DNA of 64,000 nucleotides from Christensenellaceae bacterium (GTDB taxonomy: Bacteria; Bacillota; Clostridia; Christensenellales; SZUA-584), in assembly GCA_963665005.2 (NCBI GenBank), contig CAXXTQ010000001.1, positions 1,496,382-1,560,381 on the forward strand. Reading direction: 5' to 3'. Below the pieces are notes generated by a model, which saw nothing but the letters and a program-made list of their open reading frames with translations, did no database searches and was not told the DNA's origin. The position numbers and the translations under genes were made by a program. Below are positions 1,549 through 38,103 of the stretch, in pieces. Every line of letters starts with the position of its first letter. Position 1 is the first letter of the stretch.

Positions 1549-1550
1549 GT

Positions 1551-9595: not shown

Positions 9596-11311
9596 ATGTT
9601 TAATACGTTTAGGAGGATAAAGCAAGCTGAAAAAGAGGGATTGAACATTCCAAAGAGCGTGCAACAAGCCATTCCCATCACAAAGGTGTATGAGGATGGT
9701 ATTTTTAAAGTGGGCAATAACTTCTCAAAAACCCTACGGTTTACGGATATAAATTATCGTGTTGCCAGTAAAGATGATCAGATGGATATGTTTATGAGAT
9801 TCTGCGATTTAATTAACAGCATTGAGAGCGAAGCAGTAACAAAAATCACCATCAACAACAGGCGATTAAACCGCAAAGATTTTAAGCAGCGGATACTGCT
9901 GCCTGAAAAGGACGATTTCTTAGAAAAATACAGACATGAGTATAATGAGATGCTGATGGATAAGGCGACAAAATCAAGCAACTCTATGGTACAGGAGAAA
10001 TACATTACGGTTTCCTCTGCTAAAAAGAATGTAGTTGAAGCGAGAGCGTTGTTTTCAAGGTTCACTACGGATATTTCATCCTACCTGTCCAAGCTATCCA
10101 GCAGGTCGCAAGAGCTTGATGCTGTTGAAAAACTACGTATATTCCACGATTTCTATAGACTGGGCGAAGAAACCCATTACCACTTTGACTTGAAACAAGC
10201 AATACGTAAAGGGCATGATTTTAGGGATTATATCTGCCCGGACAGTATGGAGTTTAATAAAAACTATCTAAAGATTGGCGATAAGTATTGCAGGACATTT
10301 TATATGCGTGAATTTGCAAGTTTCATTAAGGATACTATGATAACCGAATTTATGGACTTGCTAAAGAATATGATGTTGTCCATTGATATGCTTCCCATTC
10401 CTACAGACGAAGCGGTGCAGATTATTAACAAGCTCATATTGGGGGTAGAAACAGATAAGGCGAGGTTTACTAGAAAGCAGTCTCAAAACGGCAACTTCAC
10501 AGCAGATATACCGTATGACCTTGAACAACGTTCAAAGGAACTCCATGAGTTTATGGATGACCTTACTTCTCGTGATCAAAGAATGTTGCTTGCAACAATA
10601 ACCATCGTTTTAGTTGCAGATAATTTGGAAGAGCTGGACGAGGATACCGAGAGCGTTTTGTCCATTGGCAGAAAGCATATTTGCCAATTTGCTTCTCTCA
10701 CTTTTCAGCAAGAGGAAGGGTTATATACGGTTTTGCCATTCGGTATGCACAAACTACCGTTTAAATGGCGTACTTTGACAACAGAGTCCACGGCTGTATT
10801 GATGCCATTCAATACAATGGACATACAGGATGAAAGTGGTATTTATTACGGTCTTAACGTCATTTCAAAGAACATGATAATAGCGGACAGGCGAAAACTG
10901 CTCAATGCAAATGGTTTTATTTTGGGAGTAAGCGGAAGCGGTAAATCGTTCAAAGCTAAAGAAGAAATGATTGCTTTGATGCTCCGTGGTGATGTAGATA
11001 TTATTTGTATCGACCCTGAGAACGAGTATGCAAACCTCTTTAGAGCCATGAATGGCGAAGTAATTAAAATATCCGCAGGAAGCAATAATCATATCAATGC
11101 CATGGATTTGAGCCGTGAGTATGGCGGAGATGAAAATCCCATCATTTTAAAGAGTGAGTTTATACTTTCGCTTATTGAACAGCTTGTAGGAACAGGTAAG
11201 CTGAACGCAAAGGAAAAGAGCATTATTGACCGTTGTACGGCTAATGTATACAGAGAGTACATAAATAATAATTTTGAAGGCTTACCGCCAACATTAAAAG
11301 ACTTTAGGCAG
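9596..11311 (+). pseudogene. VirB4-like conjugation ATPase, 5' fragment (through Walker A), disrupted by insertion
   Basis: Walker A is ILGVSGSGKSFKAKEE. VirB4-like sequence ends at ...PPTLKDFRQ (codon 11309..11311). The remaining 47 codons of the ORF (to 11452) read into inserted DNA. The missing C-terminal part is at 37486..38103. Confidence 0.85.
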
Positions 11312-11312
11312 G
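11307..11312. repeat. GGCAGG at the left junction of the virB4 insertion (copy 1)
   Basis: The same hexamer abuts the right junction at 37480..37485. Confidence 0.6.
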
Positions 11313-11315
11313 ATA

Positions 11316-11342
11316 TGCCATACTTGTTCGTGAAGAGTTCAG
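11316..11342 (+). repeat. Left terminal inverted repeat of the insertion
   Basis: TGCCATACTTGTTCGTGAAGAGTTCAG matches the reverse complement of 37456..37483 (TGCCATATTGTCAAGTGATGAGTTCGAG). I counted 23 matches over 29 hand-aligned columns. Confidence 0.7.
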
Positions 11343-11607
11343 TTGCCCATAAAATTCACGAACAGGGACACGATCAACTGGACTTTTCTTTAATTAATCG
11401 GAAAGTTTGGGCTAGAGGTGTTATGGAAAATTCTATAATGCTAATAAGCTGAGCTAAGTAGCGAAAGCAATGGAGTATAGGGGAAGACATCCATGCACTC
11501 TCCATACATACACTACCTAAAAGGCGTTTTTGAATTATGGGAGCATTAAAAATTTTAATATAATAAGGAAAATTATTAAAGTTGATGTTGTGCTAATTAA
11601 ATAAAGG

Positions 11608-11672
11608 TTGTATGATACAAAAGTAGAACATGATCTAAGAATACAAAACGAATGTTTTAATATGTATATACA
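11608..11672. promoter_or_regulatory. Two palindromes upstream of the GntR-type regulator gene (candidate operators)
   Basis: TTGTAT-G-ATACAA at 11608..11620 and TGTATATACA at 11663..11672. Both fit the loose GntR-family GT-N-AC palindrome type. Confidence 0.35.
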
Positions 11673-11687
11673 AAAGGAGTTAATAGT

Positions 11688-12764
11688 ATGAGTGAGGGAC
11701 CCAAATATCAGAAACTTGCAGGTATAATTAGAGATAATATTGAGAAAGGACTATATATCGATGGTCATGTACTGGATACTGAAAATGAGCTTGCAAAAAA
11801 ATATGATATGAGTCGGCAGACTGTACGTCAGGCGCTTGGACTTTTAGAATCAGAAGGGATACTAGAGAGAAGAAGGGGCAGTGGTACTTATGTAAAACAA
11901 AAGACAGTATCTCGGGAAAAAACGATGACCGTTGGTCTCATTATGTCATACATGACTGAGTATATATATCCAACAGTTGTGCAGGGCATAGAGGCTGAAC
12001 TCGCGCTAAACGGGTATTCTATGAAGCTGTCTTTTACGGCAAATAACGTGGGAAATGAACGTAATTTATTAAAAAGTTACCTTAAGAACCCCGTTGATGG
12101 GGTGATAGTGGAGACAACAATGCCCAGCTTACCTAATCCAAACTTATCAATTTATCAAGAACTATCTAATATGGGGATACCATATATATTTATTAACGGA
12201 TACTATCCACAACTTCACGGTGCGGCATATGTTATTTTAGATAGCTATACGGCTGGAAAGAAAGCTACTGAATACCTAATAAAAAAAGGACATAAACACA
12301 TAGCTGGTATATTTAAAGCGGATGCAATAAATGGTATGGAGCGTTATCAAGCTTATTTAGAGAGTTTACTGGAACATAAGTTGACTGTCCGTAATGAACG
12401 CATATTTTGGTACAGGAAGGACAATCAGGATTATATTTTTGAGGGTACTTATAAATCTAAGTTTTTGGAAGCAATAGAGGACTGCAGCGCAATTGTTTGC
12501 TATAACGATGAAATTGCCGTCAGCATTGTTGAACTTCTAAAAAAAGCAGGTAGAAAGGTTCCGGAGGATATTTCAATTATAAGCTTTGACAACAGTGCAT
12601 ACAGCGATGTCTGTAGTGTAAAGTTAACTTCATTAAACCATCCGAAAGAAGAACTTGGCAGGGTAGCCGCAAGACAGTTATTAAATATGATTAATGGTAG
12701 GCATGGAGAGCAAATTAAAATGCCCATGGAGATAATTGAAAAGGAAAGCATTATTAAAATCTAG
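11688..12764 (+). CDS. GntR-HTH / LacI-type sugar-binding hybrid regulator (AraR-like architecture)
   Basis: The N-terminus is a GntR winged helix (ELAKKYDMSRQTVRQALGLLESEGILERRRGSGTYV). It is followed by a periplasmic-binding-protein-like domain of about 280 aa (VDGVIV..., AIVCYNDEIA). Confidence 0.8.
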   Translation: MSEGPKYQKLAGIIRDNIEKGLYIDGHVLDTENELAKKYDMSRQTVRQALGLLESEGILERRRGSGTYVKQKTVSREKTMTVGLIMSYMTEYIYPTVVQGIEAELALNGYSMKLSFTANNVGNERNLLKSYLKNPVDGVIVETTMPSLPNPNLSIYQELSNMGIPYIFINGYYPQLHGAAYVILDSYTAGKKATEYLIKKGHKHIAGIFKADAINGMERYQAYLESLLEHKLTVRNERIFWYRKDNQDYIFEGTYKSKFLEAIEDCSAIVCYNDEIAVSIVELLKKAGRKVPEDISIISFDNSAYSDVCSVKLTSLNHPKEELGRVAARQLLNMINGRHGEQIKMPMEIIEKESIIKI

Positions 12765-12786
12765 TGGAATAGAAGCTTTATTTAGA

Positions 12787-12800
12787 ATGTGTACGCACAT
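12787..12800. promoter_or_regulatory. Palindrome ATGTGTACGCACAT (candidate operator)
   Basis: Inverted arms ATGTG/CACAT around TACG, about 70 nt upstream of the promoter of the catabolic genes. Confidence 0.3.
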
Positions 12801-12868
12801 ATAAACAAATATATATTAGAAATAAAGACAAATCAAAAACAAATATATAAAAATCGGACAAAAAAGTA

Positions 12869-12896
12869 TTGACAAATCCTTTAATTTAATTATACT
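12869..12896 (+). promoter_or_regulatory. Sigma-A-type promoter for the catabolic operon
   Basis: TTGACA (12869..12874), a 16-nt spacer, then TATACT (12891..12896). It lies about 65 nt upstream of the DapA-family gene. Confidence 0.55.
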
Positions 12897-12959
12897 ATAC
12901 ATATAAATTAAGTACCTTTACTGAAAACATGTTTTCGAAATTTTCAACTAAGAAAGGAT

Positions 12960-13871
12960 ATGAAAATACTTATGAAGAAACCCGAAGGAATTTTCCCGCC
13001 AATGTTTACGGTGTGGGATAAAAATGAGGCTTATGATCTAAAAGGTCAGGAGCGTTACATGAGGTGGCTTATCGACAATGGCGCTCAGTCGCTTGTTGCA
13101 TGCGGAAGCACTGGAGAAAATATGGCCATGAGGACGGCCGACCAGCAGCAGGTTATCGAACATGCGGTTAAGGCAGTAGCCGGCGAAGTTCCGATTTATG
13201 CCGGCACAGGCAAATACTCCACTATTGAAACACTTGAATTGAGCCAGTTTTCCAAGAAAGCTGGCGTAGATGGGCTCATGGTATTGCTTCCCTTCTACTT
13301 CAAACCATATAAGGAAGCGGCCATGAATCATCTGCGCACGATCTATAAAGAAACAAGTCTGCCGATCATTCTGTACAATAACCCGTGGTTTGCCGGTTAT
13401 GAACTGACCGCCCATGAGACTTCCGTTCTTGCCAAAGAAGGCGTACTGATCGGCGTTAAGGCTGCGCATGGTGACGCGAACCGCGTATCAGATATGCGCT
13501 ACTTTTGCGGTGAAGATTTCATCATATTCTATGGACACGACTATGCGGCGCTTCAGGGAATTGCATCGGGTGCAAACGGCTGGTTATCCGGTTTTCCGTC
13601 CACGTTCCCGAAACAGTGCAGAGAGCTGCAGGATGCGATACTTGTTGACAAAGACCTCGTAAAAGCACAGAAGATTTGGAATAAATTCATACCATTTGTG
13701 GACACGTTCATGGCCCCCGAAGTCAACGCAAAAGTCCACTGGCTTGAAATGCTGAAATGGTGCGTCTGTGAACAGGGCTGCGACGTAGGTGTTCCGAGAA
13801 GGCCGCTGAAAGAGCTTGATAATAACTATAAGAAACTTCTGAAAAAACCGCTTGAAATTTTGCTGGGTTAA
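12960..13871 (+). CDS. Dihydrodipicolinate synthase/N-acetylneuraminate lyase family (class I aldolase/dehydratase)
   Basis: GSTGENMAM, IYAGTG, ILYNNP and GVKAA (Schiff-base Lys context). The start may be ATG 12972 instead. Confidence 0.8.
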   Translation: MKILMKKPEGIFPPMFTVWDKNEAYDLKGQERYMRWLIDNGAQSLVACGSTGENMAMRTADQQQVIEHAVKAVAGEVPIYAGTGKYSTIETLELSQFSKKAGVDGLMVLLPFYFKPYKEAAMNHLRTIYKETSLPIILYNNPWFAGYELTAHETSVLAKEGVLIGVKAAHGDANRVSDMRYFCGEDFIIFYGHDYAALQGIASGANGWLSGFPSTFPKQCRELQDAILVDKDLVKAQKIWNKFIPFVDTFMAPEVNAKVHWLEMLKWCVCEQGCDVGVPRRPLKELDNNYKKLLKKPLEILLG

Positions 13872-14113
13872 GCACCTGTAAACTAGAAGGTGAAGGTGCA
13901 GCGGCTACAAAAAAATCATTAGTTTGGATTCAATGAAATGATCTGACAGCTTGAAAAGGACAATCGACGCTGCACTTTACCCTTCCCTTAAGGTAACGTA
14001 AACGAAAAAAGAATAATTTTTATTAAAAGAAAAATGAAATAGGAGTAAGTGCATTAATTGTATTTGTAAAGAAAGGGTAGATATACTGCTTCGTCTTAAA
14101 GAAGGAAAGATAC

Positions 14114-15315
14114 ATGAAAGATATTAAATCTATAACAAATGCATCGGGGAAATATGATATCATCGTGATAGGTGGGGGAATCGCTGGAGTAAGCGCGGCA
14201 GTATCAGCAAAACGACAGGGAATGAAAGTTCTGAGCGTTGAAAAGAGCATCATGTTAGGTGGACTTGCTACACTTGGCAATATTGCTTTCTACCTGCCTC
14301 TTTGTGATGGAAGAGGGAATCAAGTGGTGGGAGGACTCGCCGAAGAATTACTGTATGAATCAATTAGGTATGGCTATGGGAATTTAGATGATCACTGGAA
14401 TAAAAAAACAGAGAAACGTGCTGAGAAATGGAACGCCAGATATAAAACAATATTTTCACCACCAGAGTTTGTTATTGCACTTGATGAGTTGATAGTGCGG
14501 GAAGGCATTGATTTATTATTTGATACGGTATTCAGCGAACCTGTTATGGATGGAGGGCTTTGTAGAGGTATTTTTGTAGAAACAAAGCTAGGTCGAAAAT
14601 ATTATGAGGCATCAGCATTCGTTGACGCGACAGGTGATGGAGATTTATTTAGAAGAGCCGGTGCTGATTTTGAGTTTGAAAAAAATTGGCCTGTTTGTTG
14701 GGGCTATTCAGTAAGTATAGACAGTATTAAGAATGCGATAGAAAAGCGAGATGTAAAATACGCTGTAAAACTTGAAACACGAGCCGAATTGCATAGCGGT
14801 ATAAATCCGAAAGATTGGGTTTATACTTTGAAGGATATAACTAAATTCATACTTGATGGTAGACAGATACTTAAAAAAGATATCCTATCAGATAAAAAGC
14901 AAAAAACACTGGTCAATCTTCCGGGCATGCCACAATTTCGGACAACTTACCGGTTAATAGGTGCATACGATCTTGCTGATGCCGATGTAAATAAGAAATT
15001 TGATGATTCAATAGGGGTAATAAGTGATTGGCGGCCATCGGGTAATTACTGCGAGATCCCCTATCCTTCTTTGATATCACCTAAATTAGATAATATTTTA
15101 GTGGCAGGGAGATGTATTGCTGCTAAAGGAGAAGCAAGTGAAATAACACGACCGATCCCAGGAGTCGCGTAGATGGGCGAAGCCGTAGGGATTCAGCTGC
15201 AGAGATTATCAAACAAAAGAAGACAGTTCAAGAGTTGAATGTGTTGGACGTGCAACGGAAAATCGAAAAAGCAGGTGGCAGAATACATATTGAACAAAAT
15301 ACGTTTTGCTATTGA
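14114..15315 (+). pseudogene. FAD-dependent oxidoreductase, disrupted near the 3' end
   Basis: GxGxxG motif (DIIVIGGGIAGVSAAV). There is an in-frame TAG at 15170..15172 inside the conserved ...IPGVA*MGEAVG... segment. The expected C-terminus (AAEIIKQKKTVQELNVLDVQRKIEKAGGRIHIE) continues in the -1 frame from about 15190 to the stop at 15313..15315. Confidence 0.65.
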
Positions 15316-15506
15316 TTTCATTTTAATAAACGTTTCTTTGGGTCCGGAACCAAAGGATCAGTATTAATGAAGAAAGGAGTCGCTGCAAAATAATAGTGGA
15401 GTTTTTTATTTTCAAAATAAAACGGAAAATTGAAAAGGTAATCTGCGCCTTAACAGCCAATCGGCAGTTGTGTAAGCAGATAATCAAAAATAAAAGGAGA
15501 GAAAAT

Positions 15507-16628
15507 ATGAAGAAATTGTTGTGCATAGTACTTGCGATGATTATGGTGTGTGGTTTGGCAGCATGCTCAACATCGGGTGAAACAGTGACAGAAACGGCAG
15601 GAACCGAAGCAACGACAGAAGCTTCGCCGGAGACGACGGAAGCGGTTTCTGCTGAGACGACAAGCGAAGAATATACGGGTGAAGAGATTACTTTGACGTT
15701 TACAACTACTGCCATAGAAACCGATATTATCGGGCAAGGTCTTTTGCTTTATAAAGATTTTATTGAAGACGCAACCAACGGAAAGGTGACATTAGAAATA
15801 TATTTCAATTCTTCACTTGTTTCCAGCGCTGATGAGAGAGAGTATGTGATGAAGGGAAATGTTGATATGAATTTTGGCTATCCTGACTCATGGGGGGACT
15901 ATATCCCAGCTTTTGATACCTTTACAGTCCCTTTCTTATTCAAGAATAGTGATCATTATCTTGCATTTTATAATGGTGATTTGTTTCAGCAATTTTATGA
16001 CAGCGCTAACGTAGAAGATATTATGGGAGTGCATATGTTAACTAGTTCTTCTTTTTATAGAGGAGGACGAACCATAAATCTAACAATGGATAAAAAAGTT
16101 ACTAGTAGGGCTGACCTTGAGGGGATAAAGGTAAGGTTTCCAACAAGTGATGTGTGGTCATTTATTGGTGAATCAATGGGCGCAAATTCTGTTCCTTTAG
16201 CATGGAGTGAGGTTTATCTTGCTCTTCAGACCGGAACTCTTGAAGGACAGGATAATGGACTTTCATTAATAAGAAGTCAAAGTATATATGAAGTGACGAA
16301 AAGTGTAACATTAACAAATCATATGATATCAACGGGTTGCTTTGAAATAAATGACGAAAAGTGGGAGAGTTTATCTCCAGAGCTACAGGAAATACTAACG
16401 GAAGGGGCACAAGAAGCGGCTAATTATATTACTGAACAGCATTTGGCAACCGAAGCTGAAGACATCGCATTCTTAGAAGAAAATGATGTAAACGTATACC
16501 AATTGACCGATGAGGAATTCGCCAGCTATAGTCAGGAAGTGCTGGACTATTATTTTGCAAATGGTGGAGTTGAGGTTGAAAATATCGACATGGACTTATA
16601 TCAACAGATTAGTGATATGTCATATTAA
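15507..16628 (+). CDS. dctP: TRAP transporter substrate-binding lipoprotein (DctP family)
   Basis: Start at ATG 15507 behind AAAGGAGAG. Lipobox LAAC. A T/E-rich linker is followed by a DctP-like domain. DctQ and DctM genes follow. Confidence 0.8.
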   Translation: MKKLLCIVLAMIMVCGLAACSTSGETVTETAGTEATTEASPETTEAVSAETTSEEYTGEEITLTFTTTAIETDIIGQGLLLYKDFIEDATNGKVTLEIYFNSSLVSSADEREYVMKGNVDMNFGYPDSWGDYIPAFDTFTVPFLFKNSDHYLAFYNGDLFQQFYDSANVEDIMGVHMLTSSSFYRGGRTINLTMDKKVTSRADLEGIKVRFPTSDVWSFIGESMGANSVPLAWSEVYLALQTGTLEGQDNGLSLIRSQSIYEVTKSVTLTNHMISTGCFEINDEKWESLSPELQEILTEGAQEAANYITEQHLATEAEDIAFLEENDVNVYQLTDEEFASYSQEVLDYYFANGGVEVENIDMDLYQQISDMSY

Positions 16629-16633
16629 TGAGG

Positions 16634-16666
16634 TTTATGGGCGGATACAACGTATCCGCCCATAAA
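16634..16666 (+). terminator. Perfect 15-bp stem / 3-nt loop between dctP and dctQ (intercistronic attenuator or stabiliser)
   Basis: TTTATGGGCGGATAC-aac-GTATCCGCCCATAAA. There is no downstream T-tract, so it is not a classical strong terminator. Confidence 0.5.
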
Positions 16667-16709
16667 TTGTGGATGTTGAATACTGGATTGGTTATTATGG
16701 AGAGTAAAT

Positions 16710-17216
16710 ATGAGAGGATTATTAAAAAAAGTTTACAATAAAACAGCTGATTTTTTTGAGTTATATATACCCGGAGTATTTTTTATTATCATGTTTATTT
16801 TTTATATTGTTATGATTGCATATAGATATATATTTTATAAACAAATTAGTTCTATATTTGAGCTCAGTGTGATACTTTTTCTTTGGATTTGTGTACTATC
16901 TGCTTCTTACGGCGGACGTTCGAAAAAACATATAATGTTCGCAATATTGTATGACAAAGTATCCGAAAAAATTAAGCTGATATTCAGGCTTATTGGAAAT
17001 CTGGTTATTATAATAACTTTTATAATATTAATTCCATTTACATATGAATCAAATTGCTTTTATGCAATAAAAAAATCATCTATGCTAAAGATACCGTTTA
17101 ATGTTATTTATTTTCCTTTTATATTATTTTTAATTAGCACATTGATTCATTATTTTATTCTATTTATTAAAGATATCAAATTAATCAAGAACTTGTGGAA
17201 GGGACAACAGAAATAA
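16710..17216 (+). CDS. dctQ: TRAP transporter small permease (DctQ family)
   Basis: 168 aa with four hydrophobic segments, lying between the DctP and DctM genes. Confidence 0.8.
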   Translation: MRGLLKKVYNKTADFFELYIPGVFFIIMFIFYIVMIAYRYIFYKQISSIFELSVILFLWICVLSASYGGRSKKHIMFAILYDKVSEKIKLIFRLIGNLVIIITFIILIPFTYESNCFYAIKKSSMLKIPFNVIYFPFILFLISTLIHYFILFIKDIKLIKNLWKGQQK

Positions 17217-17217
17217 A

Positions 17218-18504
17218 ATGAATACGTTTTTAATTTTTTTGCCTCTTATAATTTTGGCAATAAGCCTTATAATACGTATGCCAATAGGGATTAGTATGAT
17301 ATGCGGTGGTGTAATTTATTTTTTGGCAACGGGGCAAGATATGGGGTTGATTTTAGACACTACAATGAGTTCATTATTCTCTAATAGTGTGCTCGTGGCC
17401 ATACCATTATTTATTTTTACTGCAAACATCATGAATTCAGGAAAAGTTACTGAGTATATGTTTACTTTTGTTAAGTCATTAGTTGGAAAGAAAAAAGGGG
17501 CGATGGCTTATATAAATATTATTATTTCTTTGATTTTTTCTGGGATGTCTGGAGCCGCACTAGCTGATGTATCAGGTATCGGGATATTAGAGATAGAGGA
17601 AATGAAAAAAGACGGGTATGATATGCCTTTTTCTTGTGCACTGACTGCTACCACTTCCGTTGTTGGTCCAATTTTCCCACCAAGTATCCCATTAGTTGTA
17701 TATGGTATGATTGCCGGTGTATCCGTTGGAAAATTATTTTTAGGTGGAATGGTTCCTGCGATCATGATCGGTTTAATACTTTGTATATATGTGCGGTATA
17801 TATCTAAAAAAAGGAATTATCCAACGGGATACAGGTTCACATTTAAGCAATTTATAAAATATACATTAAAGGCATTGCCTGCGCTTATTACTCCAGTTAT
17901 CTTACTCGGCGGTATTTACAGCGGTATCGTAACTCCGACTGAGGCAGGAGCACTGGCTGCATTATATACAATAATTATTTCTGTATTTGCATACAGAATC
18001 CTCCGCTTCAAAGATTTTATAAAGGCTGTAAAGGATACTGTTATTCAGACGGGGGTCATTGCAGCGATTGTTATCGGAGCATATGTAATGCAACATGAAG
18101 TAACAACATCAGGACTATCAAACATAATTGGGAGTTGGTTTTATAGTATAACCGATAATAAATATATTTTCTTATTTTTTATCAATATAATATTTTTAAT
18201 ATTTGGTATGTTTTTTGATGTTGGAGTTACTTCTTTAGTTTTTGTACCGCTTGTTATTCCGATAGCAACACAATTGGGAATTGACTTGGTTCATTTAGGT
18301 GTTGTTATTGTTGTAAATATGATGTTAGGTGGGTGTACTCCACCATACGGTATTCTTTGCTATGTTACCAGCGGTATGACGGAGACACCGCTTCAGAAAG
18401 TGTTTAAAGAAGCTATACCAATGATTTTGTTAATGTTTATAGTATTATTGCTGATAACATACATCCCAGAATTGGTAACAGGGATTGCAAGTTTGATATC
18501 TTAA
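17218..18504 (+). CDS. dctM: TRAP transporter large permease (DctM family)
   Basis: 428-aa polytopic protein starting 2 nt after the dctQ stop. Confidence 0.85.
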   Translation: MNTFLIFLPLIILAISLIIRMPIGISMICGGVIYFLATGQDMGLILDTTMSSLFSNSVLVAIPLFIFTANIMNSGKVTEYMFTFVKSLVGKKKGAMAYINIIISLIFSGMSGAALADVSGIGILEIEEMKKDGYDMPFSCALTATTSVVGPIFPPSIPLVVYGMIAGVSVGKLFLGGMVPAIMIGLILCIYVRYISKKRNYPTGYRFTFKQFIKYTLKALPALITPVILLGGIYSGIVTPTEAGALAALYTIIISVFAYRILRFKDFIKAVKDTVIQTGVIAAIVIGAYVMQHEVTTSGLSNIIGSWFYSITDNKYIFLFFINIIFLIFGMFFDVGVTSLVFVPLVIPIATQLGIDLVHLGVVIVVNMMLGGCTPPYGILCYVTSGMTETPLQKVFKEAIPMILLMFIVLLLITYIPELVTGIASLIS

Positions 18505-29603: not shown

Positions 29604-31244
29604 ATGAACAGGAAAATCAAATCTATCCATCCCATCACCGCCCTGTATTGCCGTCTTTCCATTGAGGACGGGCGCGACAACGAAAGCATGAGTATATCCA
29701 ATCAGAAATCTATGCTCAAGGACTACGCAGAAAAGAACGGTATGCGCGAGTACGCCTACTACGTTGACGACGGGTACACGGGCCGGAATTTCAACCGTCC
29801 CGGTTTCCAGCGCATGATTTCGGATATAGAATCTGGTAAGATCAATTGTGTGATCACCAAAGACCTGTCCCGCCTTGGCCGCAACTACATTGAAGCAGGC
29901 AGCTACATTGAGATATTCTTTCCGCGTCATAACGTTCGGTACATTGCCGTTGCGGATAATGTGGACAGTTCGAATCGACAGGAAATGGACATTACGCCGT
30001 TCAAGAATATTTTGAACGATATGTATAGCCGGGATATCTCCAAGAAGGTTTTAGCTGGACGTATGGCGCAATCCCGTCAAGGAAAATTCGGCGGTGGTCC
30101 AACGCCTTACGGCCTGATGCGTGACCCGAAGAACAGAGGGCATTTGATCATTGATCCCAAAACTGCGCCAACCGTTAAGCTGGTCTATGACCTTGCGTCG
30201 AATGGATATGGCGCGATGCGGATTGCCAAGCATCTTCTCGAACATAGGATACCGATCACGCGGAGCAGAACCGCGAAGACCGATGTGAATTATTACTCAT
30301 GGAGCGGTAACGTCATCTGCAAGATGCTCAGGAATCCGGTTTACCGGGGCGCGCATGTGGTCTGTAAAACCCATCAGAAGGCGATCCGTTCCAACACGTT
30401 CAATTTCATTCCCCGCGACCAATGGGAGATCGTCGAGGACAGCCATGAGGCTATTGTCCCGAAAGAGCAATGGGAACAGGTACAAAAGCTCATAGACCGT
30501 CGCCCGCCCATCATGCAGGGAAACGACTGCCCATTCTACAATCTGTTTCACGGGTTGATATGCTGCGCGACCTGTGGGAGATCAATGCAGGTGCGATATG
30601 AGAAGGTTGGCCGCGCTGATATTAACCGTACAACGAAACAAAAGCGGGAGCCGATTGATAAGGCATATTATATCTGTCAGACGTATAATCGGCTGGGGAA
30701 GAACGCCTGCACCAGCCACAAGATCGAAGCCCGCGACCTGTATAATCTTGTGCTGGCTGATATCCGGGAACACGCGAAAAAAGCTCTAAGGGACTCCGAT
30801 AGCTTCTATGTTCAGCTCGCCAAAAAGCTGGAGTTGCGGCACAGCGTTGACGAAAGAACACTTAAGAAAGAATTGGACACCTTAGCCGAACGGAGTAAAG
30901 AAATTGACGCGCTATTCATGAGTCTGTATGAGGATAAGGCGAAGGGCATTCTGACTGAGCAGCGGTTCGTAATGATGACGGATAAGCTGGAGCGGGAACA
31001 AACGCAGGGCAAGGCGCGGATACAGGAGATCATGGACGAGCTTGGTTGTGCCGATGACCGGAGTCGGGATGTACGAAGCTTCATAGAGGAAGTTGGTCAA
31101 TATTCTGCCATTGAGGAACTGGACGAGATGATTGTGCATCGGCTGATTGACAAAATCGTTGTGAGCCATGCCCATATTGAAAACGGCGAAAAGGTTCAGG
31201 AGGTCAGGCTCGTATATAACTTTGTAGGTGAGCTGGAGAAATAA
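29604..31244 (+). CDS. Large serine recombinase
   Basis: Start at ATG 29604 behind AAGGAGA. Resolvase catalytic domain (ALYCRLSIEDG...NQKSML...YVDDGYTGRNFNRPGFQRM...VITKDLSRLGRN). It also has a recombinase domain, a Cys-rich zinc ribbon (CCATCGRSM...C..Y.....C.SH) and a coiled coil. Confidence 0.9.
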   Translation: MNRKIKSIHPITALYCRLSIEDGRDNESMSISNQKSMLKDYAEKNGMREYAYYVDDGYTGRNFNRPGFQRMISDIESGKINCVITKDLSRLGRNYIEAGSYIEIFFPRHNVRYIAVADNVDSSNRQEMDITPFKNILNDMYSRDISKKVLAGRMAQSRQGKFGGGPTPYGLMRDPKNRGHLIIDPKTAPTVKLVYDLASNGYGAMRIAKHLLEHRIPITRSRTAKTDVNYYSWSGNVICKMLRNPVYRGAHVVCKTHQKAIRSNTFNFIPRDQWEIVEDSHEAIVPKEQWEQVQKLIDRRPPIMQGNDCPFYNLFHGLICCATCGRSMQVRYEKVGRADINRTTKQKREPIDKAYYICQTYNRLGKNACTSHKIEARDLYNLVLADIREHAKKALRDSDSFYVQLAKKLELRHSVDERTLKKELDTLAERSKEIDALFMSLYEDKAKGILTEQRFVMMTDKLEREQTQGKARIQEIMDELGCADDRSRDVRSFIEEVGQYSAIEELDEMIVHRLIDKIVVSHAHIENGEKVQEVRLVYNFVGELEK

Positions 31245-31257
31245 TTGATAACCTCCG

Positions 31258-31303
31258 ACAGCCCTCCTCCTCAGTGTGAGTTGGAGAGCTGTTTTTCTTT
31301 TTT
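31258..31303 (+). terminator. Rho-independent terminator after the recombinase gene
   Basis: ACAGCCCTCC...GGAGAGCTGT (one mismatch) followed by TTTTTCTTTTTT. It marks the GC-rich to AT-rich switch. Confidence 0.65.
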
Positions 31304-31327
31304 ATGCTTGTTTAAAGAATGTATAAA

Positions 31328-31356
31328 GTTGAATAATGGGAAAATTTGTAGTAGAA
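31328..31356 (+). promoter_or_regulatory. Sigma-A-like promoter in front of the three-gene operon
   Basis: TTGAAT (31328..31333), a 17-nt spacer, then TAGAAT (31351..31356). Confidence 0.45.
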
Positions 31357-31674
31357 TGGATTTAAGATTCTAGAAAATGCTCGTATTTGAAGCGAGAAAT
31401 CAGCAGTTCAAAGCAGTCGAAGTAAAGCTGACAACCATAATAATCCACTTATGCCCTAAAGGGAAAGACAAACTTATGAAGATTGCAATTGCATTGGGTG
31501 GTTTAAGTAGGTAAAGGGGCGATTGTTACGGGACATGAGCGTATTGGTTTTTTACCCCATACAAAACAATGGAGGGCGATTATTAATCAACTCGTCCAGT
31601 TTAGTGACGGCGAAATCCCCGTTACACAGATTACTAACGGTACGCTTAATGCTGTTAAAAATACATATGAAAAA

Positions 31675-32307
31675 ATGCCATATGATGAATCTATTATAAA
31701 AGCCCTCTCCTTCATTACTACACTTTCCTTTTCAGCAAAACTTGAGAATCAAGTTGATTTCTTGAATGAACATGGCTATTCTGTAGATTCTCAGTTATCA
31801 TTAATCTCATTAATGGTCAGCGCACAAAATTACATTACAACCGATTATGGCTCTTTAGAAGTAAATAAGTTAGCTAAGGATGCCGCAATGCAAGCGGTTA
31901 TTGATTACCAACAACGGCATGAGTCTAATCAACTTTCTATGTTTTCAGAGCAATCACAAAATGTCTGGGAAAGTGTTGGGACTGGAGCGGCTTTTTGTGA
32001 AATGGCGCGAACTTTTTTTGCATCATTTACAGAAAGACAATTAAAGTATTACATAGAACGGGCAGCCGCTAGCAATATAGATAACTACGAAACCTTAAAA
32101 ACGTTCAATCAAGAGTTATCTTTGCAGTCAAAAGCTATTGCCGACCATACCTTTGAAATCTCTAAATTAACTCAATCCTTTGCCGCTGCTTGGTTTAATA
32201 AAAATGCTATTGATTCTATACCAAACGAAAAGCAGGTAGAAAATTTCCTTAGAATGTCCTTTGGTAAATTACGCGAGGAATTCCGAAGGGAGGCTGATGG
32301 GCAATGA
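31675..32307 (+). CDS. Hypothetical protein A of the candidate defence operon (start uncertain)
   Basis: At least 210 aa with no motif I recognise. The frame is open upstream to 31507. The stop overlaps the start of gene B (ATGA). Confidence 0.6.
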   Translation: MPYDESIIKALSFITTLSFSAKLENQVDFLNEHGYSVDSQLSLISLMVSAQNYITTDYGSLEVNKLAKDAAMQAVIDYQQRHESNQLSMFSEQSQNVWESVGTGAAFCEMARTFFASFTERQLKYYIERAAASNIDNYETLKTFNQELSLQSKAIADHTFEISKLTQSFAAAWFNKNAIDSIPNEKQVENFLRMSFGKLREEFRREADGQ

Positions 32308-34187
32308 TCCAACAGACTCCTACTATGATTCGTGTTAATTGTGGGGAAATTTGTACAACCACTGAATGTACAGCATCTGAAATCAATCTACTTCACACCG
32401 ATATGGGTGACTTAACTTCGAATATTACCATTGGTTACGAAAGATTTGTTAAAAATCCTGATGAATTACCGGGTAGAATTCTTGATTTGTTACAGATTGC
32501 TGCTTATATATTTTGTGGCGATCGAATGGCTAATCGTGGTAAACGGGATAGCCTAAACAACGATTCATGGGCACGTACTTTTGAATTCCATATTCCTGTG
32601 CTAGATATAGAATTTTGGAACAGTGAAAAAACCAAAAAAGTACTAACTGATGTCTTAACGTTTTTAACAGGGGACCGTAGTTTTAGCTTTATCTTTTCAA
32701 AATCGGACAAGAACCCCGCAGAAATAAAGAACAAACAATTGTCATTGTTTTCAGAAGAATATAGCGATCCGATCGAGGCCCAAAAAACAGATATTATGCT
32801 TTTTTCTGGAGGACTTGATTCTTTAGCGGGAGCCATTCAAAGACTCAATGAACACAGAAATCGGTTCTTATGTGTTGTTAGTCATAAGTCCAATAAATCT
32901 GTGATGCATACACAAGATATGCTTATTTCCACCTTGAATATAAAATATGATAACAGAGCAAAGAAATACGGATTTGAATGCTGCAATCACAATGGATTGA
33001 AAAGTAAAGAAGAGACGCAACGCACAAGAATATTTCTTTTTTCAGCAATTGCTTTTTCATTATGCCATTGTTATGGTAAGCATGAGTTTTATGTTTACGA
33101 AAATGGTATTACGAGTTTAAATTTATCAAAGCAAGCTGATGTAATTAATGCTCGTGCCAGTAGAACAACGCATCCAAAAACATTAGGGATGCTCCGTATA
33201 TTTTATAGATTATTAGATTCTTCATTTGATATAAAAGCGCCTTATTATAATCAGACAAAAGCAGAAATTATGGAAGTGTTTAGAAAATATAATGAAGAAC
33301 ACTTGATTTCAAGTTCGGTTTCATGCAGTTCCTCCAGAACAAAGCCTGGACAAGTCCCCCATTGTGGATGCTGTTCACAATGTATTGACCGACGGTTTTC
33401 TATATTCGCGTCAGGCTTAGACGAATATGATGCCCCATATGCCAACGATTTTATTAATGCATTTCCAGATGATGACAACAATGAAACAAAGCAGCGGATT
33501 TATATTACTATGCGGTTAGCAAATCTTGAAGATATTTCGACTAAGGATGACTTTGTTAAAAAATATCCCTCTGATGTGATGGATATGATTCAATACTGGC
33601 AAGGTTCAAATAACGCTGACGATAAATTGGATGAAATATATTCATTGGTTTGTCGATATGGAAAATCTGTTATTAACGCTGCAACCAGAATGCGGAATAA
33701 ATATGATGACTTAACTCGGCCAATAAATAAAAATTCTTTGCTTGGGATAATATCGGAACGCAAATATATGAAAACGCCATGTTTCAATCGTGTTGCTGAA
33801 ATTGATATGATCCTTAAAAAAGCTATTCCAGACATTTTTCAGAGAGAAAAGCCTAAGAACGAAAATGATTTCAATGACAAGTTACATGGTATTCTTAGTA
33901 CTCGTGGAGAATTTACAAGAGAATATCCTGTGCTCCTATTTGGATTGTCTTCTTACAAAGCAGATCAAGCACAAGGAGACTTAATCATTGAGAGCAAATA
34001 TATTAGAGGGAAAACATCGCCAAGTGTCGCCAGTGAGGGTATTTCTGCAGATATAATAAAAATACCAGAGGGTTATGGTGTGATGTTTGTAGTATATGAT
34101 CCTGAAGGAAGTATAACTGATTCCTTGAAATTTTCGTCAACATTTGAGACAAAACGCAAGGATTGTTATGTACGAGTATATAGATGA
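32304..34187 (+). CDS. QueC-like PP-loop ATPase with N-terminal (~165 aa) and C-terminal (~240 aa, PD-(D/E)xK-like) extensions
   Basis: SGGLDS at 32805..32822. QRTRIFLFSAIAF, VYENGITS and APYYNQTKAEI parallel E. coli QueC blocks (GRNILFLTLAAIYA, ETDFSGYPDC, PLMWIDKAET). Cys cluster SCSS...HCGCCSQC at about 33324..33383. The C-terminus has ...YKADQAQGDLIIESKY (33960..33998). Confidence 0.8.
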   Translation: MIQQTPTMIRVNCGEICTTTECTASEINLLHTDMGDLTSNITIGYERFVKNPDELPGRILDLLQIAAYIFCGDRMANRGKRDSLNNDSWARTFEFHIPVLDIEFWNSEKTKKVLTDVLTFLTGDRSFSFIFSKSDKNPAEIKNKQLSLFSEEYSDPIEAQKTDIMLFSGGLDSLAGAIQRLNEHRNRFLCVVSHKSNKSVMHTQDMLISTLNIKYDNRAKKYGFECCNHNGLKSKEETQRTRIFLFSAIAFSLCHCYGKHEFYVYENGITSLNLSKQADVINARASRTTHPKTLGMLRIFYRLLDSSFDIKAPYYNQTKAEIMEVFRKYNEEHLISSSVSCSSSRTKPGQVPHCGCCSQCIDRRFSIFASGLDEYDAPYANDFINAFPDDDNNETKQRIYITMRLANLEDISTKDDFVKKYPSDVMDMIQYWQGSNNADDKLDEIYSLVCRYGKSVINAATRMRNKYDDLTRPINKNSLLGIISERKYMKTPCFNRVAEIDMILKKAIPDIFQREKPKNENDFNDKLHGILSTRGEFTREYPVLLFGLSSYKADQAQGDLIIESKYIRGKTSPSVASEGISADIIKIPEGYGVMFVVYDPEGSITDSLKFSSTFETKRKDCYVRVYR

Positions 34188-34280
34188 TGGGACTAAAAAA
34201 TAAGTAATGTATACAAATAAACTTGGATTTACTGCATTTTTATTAGACCATTAAACAAAAGTATTGTGGGAGTTGGTAAT

Positions 34281-37256
34281 ATGAAAATTATCAAATATAA
34301 AGTCGGTAATAATAAAGTAGCACAAATACAATCAGCTCCTAACGCAGGAATGTTGGAAGTTGATGCTGTGTTATCCTCATGGAAAAATGCAGTATCATAT
34401 AACACTCAGGACGAAGGTTCTCCTGGATTTCGGCCAGCACAGCTCGGGGCACTTTTTTCGATAAAAGCTCACTGGATTGTTTCAGACGAACCAGCTACTG
34501 TTGTTATGCCAACTGGTACAGGTAAAACAGAAACAATGATTGCTACTATTGTATCCGAAATGCTTGGGCGTACCTTAATTATTGTTCCAAATAGCTTACT
34601 AAGAGAGCAAACCGCTGAAAAATTTCTGACATTTGGTATTTTGCAAAAGATTAGTGTAATTAACGATAGCGCAATCAAACCAACTGTTACAACATTGCGT
34701 ACAACCCCCAAGGAACTTACTGATCTGCGAGAGATTTTTGATAAGTCTAATATAGTAGTTACCACAATGTCATTGTTGCAAAGATTTTCTGACGATTATT
34801 TGATGGCAATTACCGAAATCTGCAATACGTTAATTGTGGACGAAGCTCACCATATTGCGGCGAATAAATGGGCAACAGTAAAGTATAAATTAAGAAAATT
34901 GAAATGCCTGCAATTTACTGCAACACCCTTTAGAAACGATGGGAAAAAAGTCGACGGAAAAATAATTTACAATTTTCCTTTAGCAATGGCTCAGAAACAA
35001 GGATATTTTCAGCAAATCAATTTTCTTCCTATTTGGGAGTTTGATGAAGAAAAAGGCGATCTTGCTATTGCTTCAGCTGCCATCAACCAACTTGATAGTG
35101 ATTTGAAAGCTGGGTACAATCACATAATTCTTGTACGTGTTAAGAGCAAGATTTCTGCTGATCATTTGTACAGAAGCATTTATCGACAACATTTTGAAAA
35201 ATATAATCCAGTATTGGTGCATAGTGATATTTCTGCAACTGACAGGGCTAAGGCAATAGCGGCTCTTAACAATGGGAGTTCGCGAATAGTTGTTTGCGTG
35301 GATATGTTTGGAGAAGGAATTGATATTCCCAGTTTGAAAATAGCGGCTGTACATGACAAATATAAATCGCTTCCAATAACATTGCAATTCATTGGACGTT
35401 TTGCAAGGTCGAGCGAGGGGCTTGGTACAGCAACAGTGATTACCAACATAGCTAATGATGAATTAAACGAATCACTACGAGAGCTTTATACTCAAGATTC
35501 AGACTGGAATGTTTTGCTTCATGTTATGGCTAGTCGCGAGATTGATAAGGAACTATCATTACAAGAACTTGCCGAAGGATTTGATGTATCCTCTTTAAGC
35601 GGAATGACTATTCAGCAATTACGTCCAAAAGTAAGTATGATAGCTTACAGCACAAATGATAAAAACTGGAATCTAAGTGCTCTAAATAATTTCTTCGATC
35701 CTGATAAGTGTTATTTCACTGTCAACCATGACAATAAAGTAATAGTTATAATTGAAAAAATTGATTCGAATATTGAATGGTCTACCTTCAAAGGAATTAA
35801 CGATATAAATTGGAATTTGCATTTGGTCTATTGGAATCCCGAAATAAAAATGTTCTTCATAAACAGTACAAACAAAAGTATTTCTGACACTATAGCCGAT
35901 GCATTGTTTACTCAATCAATTAGAATAAGTGGTGAAAATGTATTCCGCTGTTTGCACGGCATTAAGCGTTTAATGCTCGGTACAGTTGGCCTAAAATCAG
36001 CTTTTGATGGTCCTATTCGTTATCGAATGTTTGCTGGAATTGATATTGCTAATGGTATTACTGAATCACAAAAAGAATCTTCCTTTAAATCAAATCTATT
36101 TGGGGTTGGATATGATGGGAGTGGCAAAGTAAGTATTGGATGTTCATATAAAGGTCGCATTTGGTCTAGGTGGGTCGAGAGTATTGATTTTTGGATGAAC
36201 TGGTGTGATAATATAGCTGCCCGACTACAAAATCAAGAAATTGACACTTCAAGAATATTTGAGGGAGCATTAGTACCTGAAATAATATATGAACGCCCCT
36301 CGTCTGTTCCCTACGAAATTGAATGGCCCATCGATATGGATTTGATAAATGATCGTAGTATCCTCATAACTCATGGACCTAACGATTATCCTGTTTATGC
36401 AATGGATATTAAACTTTCTGATTATAATGAAACTGGGCCGATACGATTTTCTGTCGGAAATAATAAAATTCGTGAAGAGTATGAATTACACATTTCTAAC
36501 CGAAAATATGAATTTAAGACAATTAAGCCGACGGGATTGATTATAAAGAGAAGTAAACGTGAATATAAGGTAGCAGAGTTTTTTAACGAATTTCCACCGC
36601 GCATTAAATTTGTTGACCAATCAATGCTAGAAGGAAATCTTCTGGTTAAAATAACCGCTATTCCTCCATCGTTTAATAGAGAACGCATACAGATTTGGAA
36701 TTGGAAAGGAATAGATATTCATAAAGAATCACAGGGCGCTGAGCGCAATAAACAAAGTATTCAATATCGTGTGATCCAGAACCTTGTGTCTACTGATCGT
36801 TTCAGCGTGATTTTTGACGATGATGATGCTGGCGAAATAGCAGATGTAGTTAGTATTGCCGATGACAAAAATAAAATTTCTATTCAGTTCTATCACTGCA
36901 AATATGCTCATGGAGATAATCCTGGTGCTAGAGTTGCTGATTTATACGAAGTATGCGGACAAGCAGAGAAATCAATAAAGTGGTGCCAAGAACCAACCGC
37001 AATCATTGATCGTCTTATAAAACGTGAATCTTCCCGTATACATTTGGGAGGAACAAGATTTGAAGTTGGAAGTCTGCGCAAACTTCGAGAAATTAAGAAT
37101 AAAATGCGTGTATTCCCAACACATATTCAAATTTTCATTGTACAACCTGGGATTGATTCCACAGCATTAACAGATGATATGATTCGTATACTTAGTGGAA
37201 CAGCATCATACTTAATGGATACCTATAGTGTAAAGCTACAAGTCATTTGTAGCTAA
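34281..37256 (+). CDS. SF2 DEAH-box helicase fused to a ~580-aa C-terminal region ending in a restriction-endonuclease-like module
   Basis: Start taken at ATG 34281 behind GGGAG (the track uses GTG 34266). Motif I is MPTGTGKTE (34509..), II is IVDEAHHI (34836..), III is TATP (34917..), V is MFGEGIDIP and VI is QFIGRFARS (35385..). The C-terminus reads DDDDAGEIADVVSI-x11-IQFYHCKY (36816..36902). Confidence 0.85.
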   Translation: MKIIKYKVGNNKVAQIQSAPNAGMLEVDAVLSSWKNAVSYNTQDEGSPGFRPAQLGALFSIKAHWIVSDEPATVVMPTGTGKTETMIATIVSEMLGRTLIIVPNSLLREQTAEKFLTFGILQKISVINDSAIKPTVTTLRTTPKELTDLREIFDKSNIVVTTMSLLQRFSDDYLMAITEICNTLIVDEAHHIAANKWATVKYKLRKLKCLQFTATPFRNDGKKVDGKIIYNFPLAMAQKQGYFQQINFLPIWEFDEEKGDLAIASAAINQLDSDLKAGYNHIILVRVKSKISADHLYRSIYRQHFEKYNPVLVHSDISATDRAKAIAALNNGSSRIVVCVDMFGEGIDIPSLKIAAVHDKYKSLPITLQFIGRFARSSEGLGTATVITNIANDELNESLRELYTQDSDWNVLLHVMASREIDKELSLQELAEGFDVSSLSGMTIQQLRPKVSMIAYSTNDKNWNLSALNNFFDPDKCYFTVNHDNKVIVIIEKIDSNIEWSTFKGINDINWNLHLVYWNPEIKMFFINSTNKSISDTIADALFTQSIRISGENVFRCLHGIKRLMLGTVGLKSAFDGPIRYRMFAGIDIANGITESQKESSFKSNLFGVGYDGSGKVSIGCSYKGRIWSRWVESIDFWMNWCDNIAARLQNQEIDTSRIFEGALVPEIIYERPSSVPYEIEWPIDMDLINDRSILITHGPNDYPVYAMDIKLSDYNETGPIRFSVGNNKIREEYELHISNRKYEFKTIKPTGLIIKRSKREYKVAEFFNEFPPRIKFVDQSMLEGNLLVKITAIPPSFNRERIQIWNWKGIDIHKESQGAERNKQSIQYRVIQNLVSTDRFSVIFDDDDAGEIADVVSIADDKNKISIQFYHCKYAHGDNPGARVADLYEVCGQAEKSIKWCQEPTAIIDRLIKRESSRIHLGGTRFEVGSLRKLREIKNKMRVFPTHIQIFIVQPGIDSTALTDDMIRILSGTASYLMDTYSVKLQVICS

Positions 37257-37419
37257 TTGTTTGTTTCAAGATAAATGACAGTGACATTTCCGATTACCTC
37301 ATCTATCGTTGTTCTACTCAAACCGTTTATTTTCCCATAGAATACACTTTGCTTATTTCTAAAGTGAGTTCCAAGTATGAGTATAATTGTGCTGTGACCT
37401 AAAGATGGCTATATGATAT

Positions 37420-37455
37420 AAAACTGTGTTCCTGTAGGGCACAGTTTTTGTTTTT
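37420..37455 (+). terminator. Rho-independent terminator closing the three-gene operon
   Basis: AAAACTGTG-ttcctgtaggg-CACAGTTTT followed by TGTTTTTC. It abuts the right inverted repeat. Confidence 0.65.
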
Positions 37456-37483
37456 CTCGAACTCATCACTTGACAATATGGCA
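37456..37483 (-). repeat. Right terminal inverted repeat of the insertion
   Basis: The reverse complement TGCCATATTGTCAAGTGATGAGTTCGAG pairs with 11316..11342. Confidence 0.7.
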
Positions 37484-37485
37484 GG
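37480..37485. repeat. GGCAGG at the right junction of the virB4 insertion (copy 2)
   Basis: Identical to 11307..11312. Confidence 0.6.
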
Positions 37486-38103
37486 GAGCTATTAAAGCAG
37501 GACGAACCCGAAGCAAGAGAAGTAGCTCTAGCCATTGAGTTATTTACCGATGGCAGCTTAAACACCTTTGCACAGCAGACCAATGTGGATGTAAATAGCC
37601 AATACCTTGTCTATGACATAAAGGATTTAGGCAAGCAGCTACGCACAATTGGTATGCTTGTGGTGCTTGATAACATATTCAATCGTATTACTGAAAACAG
37701 GGCGAAAGGACGTATCACTTTTATCTATATTGACGAGATCTATCTGCTTTTTCAAAATGAGTATTCCTCTAACTTTTTGTTCGAATTATGGAAGCGTGTC
37801 AGAAAGTACGGAGCTTGTGCGACAGGGATTACCCAAAATGTTTCCGACCTTTTAGTATCACATACGGCTAGGACAATGCTTGCTAACAGCGAGTTTCTTT
37901 TGATGATGAATCAAGCTCCGACAGACAGGATTGAGCTTGCTAATCTAATCAACATCAGTGAAGCACAGCTATCCCACATAACGGATAATGAAAAAGCAGG
38001 TATAGGGCTTTTGAAATATGCAGGGAGCATCGTGCCTTTTGAAGATGATTTTCCACGACATACAAGGCTTTATAACTTGATGAATACAAAAATTGGTAAA
38101 TAA
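37486..38103 (+). pseudogene. VirB4-like conjugation ATPase, 3' fragment (Walker B onward)
   Basis: In frame from 37486: ELLKQDEPEAREVALAIELFTDGSLNTFAQQTNVDVNSQYLVYDIKDLGKQL...RITFIYIDEIYLLF (Walker B)...GITQNVSD. There is no start codon or N-terminal domain of its own. Confidence 0.85.

Follow-up and report, generated by a model that had tools for sequence, protein, structure and literature searches.

Integrative mobilizable elements (IMEs) that encode a large serine recombinase (LSR) and are nested in the conjugation genes of integrative and conjugative elements (ICEs) have already been published. The example analyzed here lies in a 64-kb stretch of DNA from a Christensenellaceae bacterium (the window: 64,000 nucleotides of contig CAXXTQ010000001.1, numbered from its first letter), where an IME at 11312..37485 interrupts virB4, the gene for an ATPase of the type IV secretion system (T4SS) of its host ICE. 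What is distinctive here is the virB4 location together with the simultaneous disruption of virD4.

In Clostridioides difficile, Tn6104 and Tn6105 reside in traG of Tn6103; Tn6104 has a TnpX-related recombinase and a 2-bp flanking repeat, and its excision from traG has been shown (PMC3158075). The window's IME is likened to Tn6104, Tn6105 and Tn6106 in Tn6103 of strain R20291 (PMC3158075; PMC9585547) by published descriptions rather than by sequence alignment. On that basis the likeness extends to a TnpX-related LSR, a MobA/MobL relaxase, sigma-factor-like genes, a cargo of regulator and transporter genes, a 2-bp flanking repeat and a location inside conjugation genes of a CTn5/Tn1549-type ICE. 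It also takes in the presence of several elements per ICE, with the coupling-protein gene hit at two sites, one of them between amino acids 328 and 329. In contrast, the window's IME is in virB4; its recombinase gene is internal to the element, separated by ~6 kb of defence-like cargo from the right end, and tnpV is absent, not only from the IME but from the whole window.

Serine-integrase IMEs target traG/virD4 of Tn5252- and Tn1549-type ICEs (PMC5357655, PMC5704250, PMC7168690), and streptococcal members are found in traG, maff2 and snf2 of such ICEs (PMC5357655; PMC7168690). A preliminary description of the window, made from sequence without searches, had pointed to nested serine-recombinase IMEs in streptococcal ICE genes, and the literature does contain them, in traG/virD4, maff2 and snf2 (PMC5357655, PMC5704250). 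The likeness to the window is that insertion is site-specific, that it disrupts a conserved conjugation gene of the ICE, and that the IME would depend on the very T4SS that it disrupts. The streptococcal model, which carries over directly, is that the gene is restored by excision, after which the two elements transfer and the IME inserts anew (Coluzzi et al. 2017, PMC5357655). The window's element differs in that its host clade and element family belong to the gut Clostridia and that its target is virB4; moreover, replication-type modules (replisome organizer, DnaC) are found in some relatives such as locus L174 and not in the window copy. No report of virB4 as an IME target was found in the literature searched, in which the targets listed are traG/virD4, maff2, snf2, PPI and a few others.

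Tn4451 and Tn4453, the TnpX elements, share with the window's IME an LSR with a DUF4368-type tail (a grouping by domains, not by alignment with TnpX), crossover at GA, and mobilizability. They are also alike in that one end carries a -35 box and the opposite end a -10 box, an arrangement with which a predicted promoter exists only in the circular joint. TnpZ of Tn4451 is a Mob/Pre-type protein, whereas the relaxase of the window's IME is of the MobQ family. TnpX is sufficient by itself for transposition (Lyras et al. 2004), and a promoter arises in the circular form (Lyras & Rood 2000), both as cited in PMC5704250 and PMC13023037. Tn4451 inserts at "numerous sites (GA)" (PMC5704250, table), in contrast to the window's family, which is largely specific to one virD4 codon; and the recombinase gene here has a promoter of its own 18 kb away, so that it would not be under the direct control of the joint promoter. 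In principle there is also a likeness to the skin element in sigK and to the Listeria comK prophage, in which a serine-recombinase element interrupts a gene that is rebuilt by precise excision. Here, however, the interrupted gene belongs to another mobile element rather than to the core genome of the host, and there is no sign of regulated or developmental excision.

The open reading frame (ORF) at 9596..11452 is VirB4-like up to ...EGLPPTLKDFRQ (the codon that ends at 11311) and then runs through 46 codons of unrelated sequence. The remainder of the protein lies in a frame that is open from 37474 and ends at the stop at 38103; from 37486 it reads ELLKQDEPEAREVALAIELFTDGSLNTFAQQTNVD...IYIDEIY.... 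Joining 11311 to 37486 generates a single 777-aa ORF, to which the 5' part (9596..11311, + strand) contributes codons 1-572 and the 3' part (37486..38103, + strand) codons 573-777 and the stop. The joined ORF matches the NCBIfam profile NF045971 (VirB4-like conjugal transfer ATPase, CD1110 family) with 981.7 bits (cutoff 325), in one stretch that covers profile positions 1-751 of 752. Many intact VirB4 homologues in the protein database are also 777 aa long, with 100% query coverage and identity up to 90%. An alignment of 16 sequences has no gap at the join, where ...TLKDFRQ is followed directly by ELL[KR]QDEPEA.... Walker A (GVSGSGKS), at residue 444, and Walker B (IYIDEIY), at residue 652, lie on either side of the break after residue 572. 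The preliminary description had proposed that virB4 is broken between its Walker motifs by a 26.2-kb insert and that this join restores one reading frame, and had suggested alignment with intact CD1110-family proteins as the check; both proposals stand, and the alignment identifies the two fragments as contiguous parts of one protein.

With a single one of the two GA copies (11312-13 and 37486-87) included, the insert in virB4 is 11312..37485, or 26,174 bp. Walker A and Walker B are 26.2 kb apart in the present genome and belong to one polypeptide only after conceptual excision. The 3' part, as had been said at the outset, lacks a start codon of its own: its frame has a stop 4 codons upstream of 37486, and the first start codon encountered is GTG 37585. 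In addition, a strong terminator (37420-48) lies a short way inside the right end of the insert. The VirB4 of this ICE therefore cannot be produced as one polypeptide, and its 3' part is without evident means of expression. The initial claim that a mobile insertion inactivates the T4SS ATPase is supported by the finding of a discrete insert with a recombinase, a relaxase and defined ends.

The IME is bounded by a 2-bp direct repeat, GA (11312-13 and 37486-87), and GA is found at all junctions of its family as well. The left junction (attL) is ...TTTAGGCAG-GA-TATGCCATACTTG... and the right junction (attR) is ...CTTGACAATATGGCAGG-GA-GCTATTAAAG.... The attP rebuilt from them, GAACTCATCACTTGACAATATGGCAGG-GA-TATGCCATACTTGTTCGTGAAGAGTTC, is an imperfect dyad centred on GA. 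(The rebuilt empty site, attB, reads ...GACTTTAGGCAGGAGCTATTAAAGC... and the rebuilt attP joint reads ....CTTGACAATATGGCAGGGATATGCCATACTTG...). Only one reconstruction, with a single GA in attB and a single GA in attP, allows virB4 to be in frame. Both junctions look like the products of a serine recombinase.

The left end of the IME (11312..11393, + strand) opens with the GA crossover at 11312-13, GATATGCCATACTTGTTCGTGAAGAGTTCAGTTGCC...GAACAGGGACACGAT, and carries a -10-like CATACT at 11319-24; it is kept in 34 related loci. The right end (37420..37487, + strand) consists of a terminator with a 12-bp stem (37420-48), AACTCATCACTTGACA at 37460-75, which includes a TTGACA -35 box, then 10 nt and GA at 37486-87. 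Across the reconstructed joint, TTGACA of the right end (37470-37475) is separated by 17 nt from CATACT of the left end (11319-11324; CATAAT in many relatives). In the integrated state the left-end -10-like box has no -35 box ahead of it, and the predicted sigma-70-type promoter would exist in the excised circle only.

The family to which this IME belongs was delimited with a recombinase search covering one genome per GTDB species, which returned 427 LSR relatives. The analysis went on with the best 80 loci (65-78% identity), whose sources include Oscillospiraceae, Lachnospiraceae, Flavonifractor, Faecalibacterium and Blautia. Among these 80, the left end GATATGCCATAcTTGTTcGTGAAGAGTTCAGTTGCC...ACAGGGACACGA recurs in 34 loci, and the right end, AATTCATCACTTGACA followed by 10 nt and GA, in 61. 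The gene for the ICE coupling protein, virD4, adjoins the left junction in 26 of 34 cases and the right-end match in at least 47 of 65. The cut is at codons 505-507 (numbered on the 582-aa VirD4 of locus L002), where ...NYQKLGK is followed by ELM(S/T)QDE(I/L)AVMDGGKC or by ELLTPDEVRxLDNRYA. The element is, in other words, a member of a large gut-Clostridia family whose preferred attB lies in virD4 codons 505-507. About a fifth of the family's ends adjoin something other than virD4, and the family therefore uses secondary sites. Three relatives with recombinases 74-76% identical (L004, L008 and L174) are all inserted in virD4, and locus L179, whose left end is 98.8% identical to that of the window over 82 nt, is also positioned at the virD4 site; its left end is followed by tnpV (PF14198) and then by sugar-utilization cargo like that of the window (IclR, DHDPS, ADH, AXE1, TRAP). 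The window copy is in virB4 instead, and the family's virD4 site in the same ICE (~7534) is unoccupied.

These observations make it probable that a TnpX/Tn6104-type IME has entered virB4 of a CTn4/Tn1549-like ICE, the usual target of its family being virD4 and the virB4 site most likely a secondary one. Conservative recombination by the serine recombinase at the GA dinucleotide has placed the IME inside virB4, where it parts Walker A from Walker B and so inactivates the ATPase. Since the ends and the recombinase are intact and each junction has one GA, excision would rebuild virB4 exactly and in frame, and would release a circular IME with the joint promoter (TTGACA, 17 nt, CATACT). The MobQ relaxase would then mobilize the IME through a T4SS, as has been proposed for streptococcal IMEs nested in ICEs (PMC5357655). 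The split, the genes of the element, the ends of its family and that family's usual target are seen directly; that the IME excises at present, that the joint promoter functions and that the virB4 site is secondary are all points that we infer.

The genes on which this sequence of events would depend are present. All genes in 11312..37485 are on the + strand. The LSR (29604..31244, 546 aa) has Resolvase, Recombinase, Zn_ribbon_recom and DUF4368 domains and an N-terminal YCRLS motif. The relaxase (27552..28985) has a MobA_MobL domain (Pfam PF03389, 2.8e-96) and matches the NCBIfam MobQ profile NF041496 with 274.6 bits (cutoff 200) over positions 1-197 of 197. When all 20 ORFs in 11312..37485 that reach at least 120 aa were scanned against Pfam, no T4SS genes were found. 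The features by which IMEs are defined (PMC5357655) are thus found here as a complete integrase coding sequence, a complete relaxase coding sequence, no VirB4 or other T4SS gene, and direct repeats. A complete recombinase and a complete MobQ in the absence of T4SS genes fit the definition of an IME, and a helper T4SS would be needed for its transfer, which agrees with what the preliminary description had said of an insert that carries a relaxase and so would require a T4SS for its movement.

The host ICE has been hit a second time. Window positions 1..6951 hold minus-strand genes for an AraC regulator, two ABC exporters and ECF-transporter components, and end with the sequence GATGAAAAAGTCCTTGACAATTCGTTTCC at 6923-6951. 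This terminus adjoins identical virD4 codons (SGKTAKSIL) in L024, L042, L044 and L179, and positions 1-6951 are therefore taken to be the right-hand part of a second inserted element, whose left end is beyond the window. What follows is the 3' part of virD4 only (6952..7767, + strand): homology to the intact 582-aa VirD4 of L001 and L002 starts from residue ~311 (window ~6946-6952), so that the virD4 residues in the window are ~311-582, and the empty family target site at ~7534 falls within this part. In four relatives virD4 has received both elements, one at codon 311 and one at codon 505; the IME of the window has hit virB4 instead, and both ATPase genes of one ICE, virB4 and virD4, are interrupted by two different serine-recombinase elements. 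In C. difficile, TraG residues 328 and 329 flank one of the insertions in Tn6103 (PMC3158075, supplement), at a site that is plausibly equivalent to the one at virD4 codon ~311. Neither an ICE relaxase nor the 5' part of virD4 is visible within the 64-kb window. (The family's usual target, the second element in virD4 and the lack of a visible ICE relaxase all go beyond the preliminary description.)

This double hit bears on the most serious alternative, which accepts the insertion as described and holds that the nested structure is now a fossil rather than a switch: decaying and immobile, with a dead ICE and an IME that no longer excises. We consider it a substantial possibility, though one that falls short of even chances. 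It is suggested jointly by the interruption of virD4 at codon ~311 in addition to virB4, with no ICE relaxase or virD4 5' part in the window, by the loss of tnpV from the IME, and by published precedent: many hosted IMEs are decayed, and IME_SNF2 and IME_PPI have no detectable excision in Streptococcus suis (PMC7168690), while Tn6103, with its three nested elements, failed to transfer (PMC3158075). On the other hand, no frameshift or stop is seen in the recombinase, in the relaxase, at either end or in either half of virB4. The other T4SS genes in the window, which lie downstream (TrbC-like, TrbL-like, PrgI and NlpC/P60), are of normal length in comparison with intact relatives. Furthermore, the second element ends in a conserved terminus at an identical site in four other genomes, and may also be excisable.

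A further alternative concerns the choice of site. It supposes a dedicated virB4-targeting lineage, in which the recombinase has diverged from its virD4-targeting kin and virB4 codon 572 has become the primary target. In favor of a secondary site, by contrast, is the resemblance of the virB4 site to the family target, which was gauged with a position-weight matrix derived from non-redundant half-sites of the family (22 left, 41 right) and used to score the 4,348 GA positions of the insert-free window (a matrix that, as a limit on its weight, blends recognition by the recombinase with conservation of VirD4 coding sequence). The virB4 site ranks 3 of 4,348 (about +4 standard deviations), and 2 for the right half-site; the codons that follow the crossover are ELLKQDE in virB4 and ELMSQDE in virD4. 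Thus virB4 most likely serves as a secondary attB that resembles the preferred one in virD4. As a separate observation, the second-best match to the target consensus in the window, GTGAACTATAAGCAGGTAGGAAAG-GA-TATGG... at ~51040, lies inside an ABC ATPase gene (50830..51474), matches in the left half-site only, and is probably due to chance.

Several points nevertheless weigh against a secondary-site event, or against a complete and currently mobile element. The first rank in the matrix goes to the window's own virD4 site, and it is odd that a secondary site should have been used when a better-scoring one in the same ICE is empty. The tnpV gene that stands next to the left end of L179 is missing from this copy, for which neither an excised circle nor an empty site has been observed. 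The nearest recombinases (P0122, P0123 and P0124, at 87% and 77-78% identity) are on contigs that do not reach the ends of their elements; their targets are not shown by these contigs, and a lineage-specific switch to virB4 accordingly retains some probability. The recombinase of the window's IME (P0121) is at most 87% identical to any database match and at most 78% identical to relatives with usable context, which favors a separate lineage, as does the empty canonical virD4 site. In streptococci, serine integrases that are closely related are known to differ in the ICE gene that they enter, or in the site that they use within a gene (PMC5357655).

We nonetheless regard a dedicated virB4-targeting lineage as unlikely. 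The ends of the element, which constitute attP, match those of the virD4-targeting family; L179, with its 98.8%-identical left end, is in virD4, as are all three relatives whose recombinases are 74-76% identical. The best 80 loci, a viral scan, two metagenome scans and a protein search yielded no second virB4 junction. In these scans the right-junction pattern had 0 matches in viral contigs and 0 in metagenome contigs. The left-junction pattern had 89 matches in metagenome contigs, a collection that offered no positive control, and none of them continued into the conserved left end beyond the pattern, which makes them chance matches. The protein search, with the chimeric peptide at the VirB4 tail, gave 18 candidates and no VirB4 fusion; it did find the corresponding product at the usual site, P0251 of L179, in which the virD4 5' part is fused to ...DMPYLFVKSSVAHKIHEQGHDQLDFSL.

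That the virB4 halves were misjoined to unrelated DNA across repeats in assembly is highly improbable, because both junctions have exactly the structure that a serine recombinase should leave (a single GA at each, with the reading frame kept), the ends are conserved family termini present in dozens of independent assemblies, and the window belongs to a 3.09-Mb contig. Two other accounts of the interrupting DNA were rejected: it is not a composite of several elements, since neither end motif recurs inside 11312..37485, and it is not a group II intron or insertion sequence, since the Rfam scan is without an intron and no transposase is present.

The rest of the IME consists of two blocks of cargo on either side of a core module. 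The first block (11688..25567, + strand) is a cluster for utilization of carbohydrates or sugar acids, similar to cargo in the IME of L179. It encodes a GntR/LacI-type regulator, a DHDPS-family lyase, an FAD oxidoreductase, the TRAP transporter DctPQM, an MBL-fold protein, a zinc-dependent alcohol dehydrogenase (Zn-ADH), a split transketolase, a URO-D-like protein, an AXE1 esterase and a PfkB kinase. Between the transketolase and URO-D-like genes there is a partial copy of the 5' end of the AXE1 gene (22182-22341 compared with 23617-23774, ~70% identical), which appears to be the remnant of a duplication or rearrangement within the cluster. The core module opens with two sigma-70 region-4-like proteins (26063..26593 and 26680..27111, + strand) and a DUF3847 protein (27118..27360, + strand), in the same gene order as in L175 and L174, and continues with the relaxase. 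The second block (31675..37256, + strand; domain searches) is defence-like and encodes a 210-aa protein of unknown family, a QatC-like PP-loop protein and a 996-aa ResIII/DEAD helicase. The QatC-like protein (PADLOC QatC, 1e-51) has a weakly DpnII/MboI-like C-terminus, and no QatA, QatB or QatD partners were detected for it. The corresponding stretch between recombinase gene and right end in relatives (L174, L176-L178) holds a reverse transcriptase with a PRTase, a Z1-domain protein or a PIN protein, and looks like a hotspot for defence-like cargo. GC content is mosaic, ~50% at 26-31 kb compared with ~35% in the flanks, which suggests acquisition of cargo.

Outside the IME, the host ICE has, near its right side, two adjacent and overlapping LSR genes (56775..60081, + strand; 569 and 536 aa), 35% identical to each other and 31-35% identical to the IME recombinase; this pair is presumably the ICE's own two-integrase module. 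Its cargo at 45205-49132 comprises a BlaI-type repressor, a BlaR1/M56 sensor fused to DUF6034 and a VanY D-Ala-D-Ala carboxypeptidase, and is followed by ABC transporter genes. Interruptions of other kinds are found in related ICEs. In L065 (17402-21640) virB4 homology is interrupted at residue ~477, and in L027 (15073-18929) between residues ~288 and ~305, by inserts of ~2.3-2.5 kb; in L001 (5918-7756) a group II intron reverse transcriptase stands between the trbC-like and trbL-like genes. The T4SS genes of these related ICEs are interrupted by several kinds of element.

The IME also carries features that may be regulatory. A cyclic di-GMP (c-di-GMP-I) riboswitch aptamer (25622-25709, + strand; Rfam RF01051, 78.9 bits, gathering score 35) is followed by a terminator-like hairpin found by terminator scan (25723-25745). 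The two lie between the sugar cluster and the core module of sigma-like genes, DUF3847 and MobQ, directly upstream of the latter. The riboswitch is at the same position in L175 (2106-2189), whose recombinase is 77% identical, and was not found by Rfam scans in 21 other related loci. The recombinase gene has a predicted sigma-70-type promoter of its own (29538-29566, within a + strand segment at 29538..29585), with TTGAAA and TATAAT spaced by 17 nt, 11 of 12 consensus matches and a TG extension; a palindrome, GGGACA...TGTCCC, brackets its -10 box. A 15-nt segment of the recombinase 5' untranslated region and putative operator (29571-85, ATCGTGTCCCTGTTC) is an exact inverted copy of left-end positions 11359-73. 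This pair of motifs is conserved family-wide, and in L039 the same G-to-A change is found in both copies.

These features can be put together as a regulated, reversible lock on ICE transfer, in place of a passive insertion, and this would hold for the element family as a whole. The idea is speculative and, in our estimate, rather doubtful. It draws on the riboswitch with its terminator, which would gate the core module, on the palindromic putative operator at the recombinase promoter, on the inverted repetition of the 15-nt operator half in the left end, and on the matching changes in L039. Transcripts of the left end, whether from the interrupted T4SS gene or from the joint promoter, would be antisense to the 5' untranslated region of the recombinase. 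If true, excision of the IME would be tied to second-messenger signaling as well as to the transcription of the conjugation operon in the ICE, and the range of the family would take in both T4SS ATPase genes.

As it stands, the locus provides a fully delimited case of an IME nested in an ICE and documents virB4 as a landing site. It also yields base-level attL, attR, attP and attB sequences for a very widespread IME family of gut Clostridia. These can be used to annotate split T4SS genes that are otherwise called "defective ICEs", and to approach the published idea that excision of an IME re-arms its host ICE, as well as the choice of secondary sites by LSRs. The IME carries a sugar-acid utilization cluster together with defence-like genes, and its nesting in an ICE bears on the flow of such traits in gut communities.

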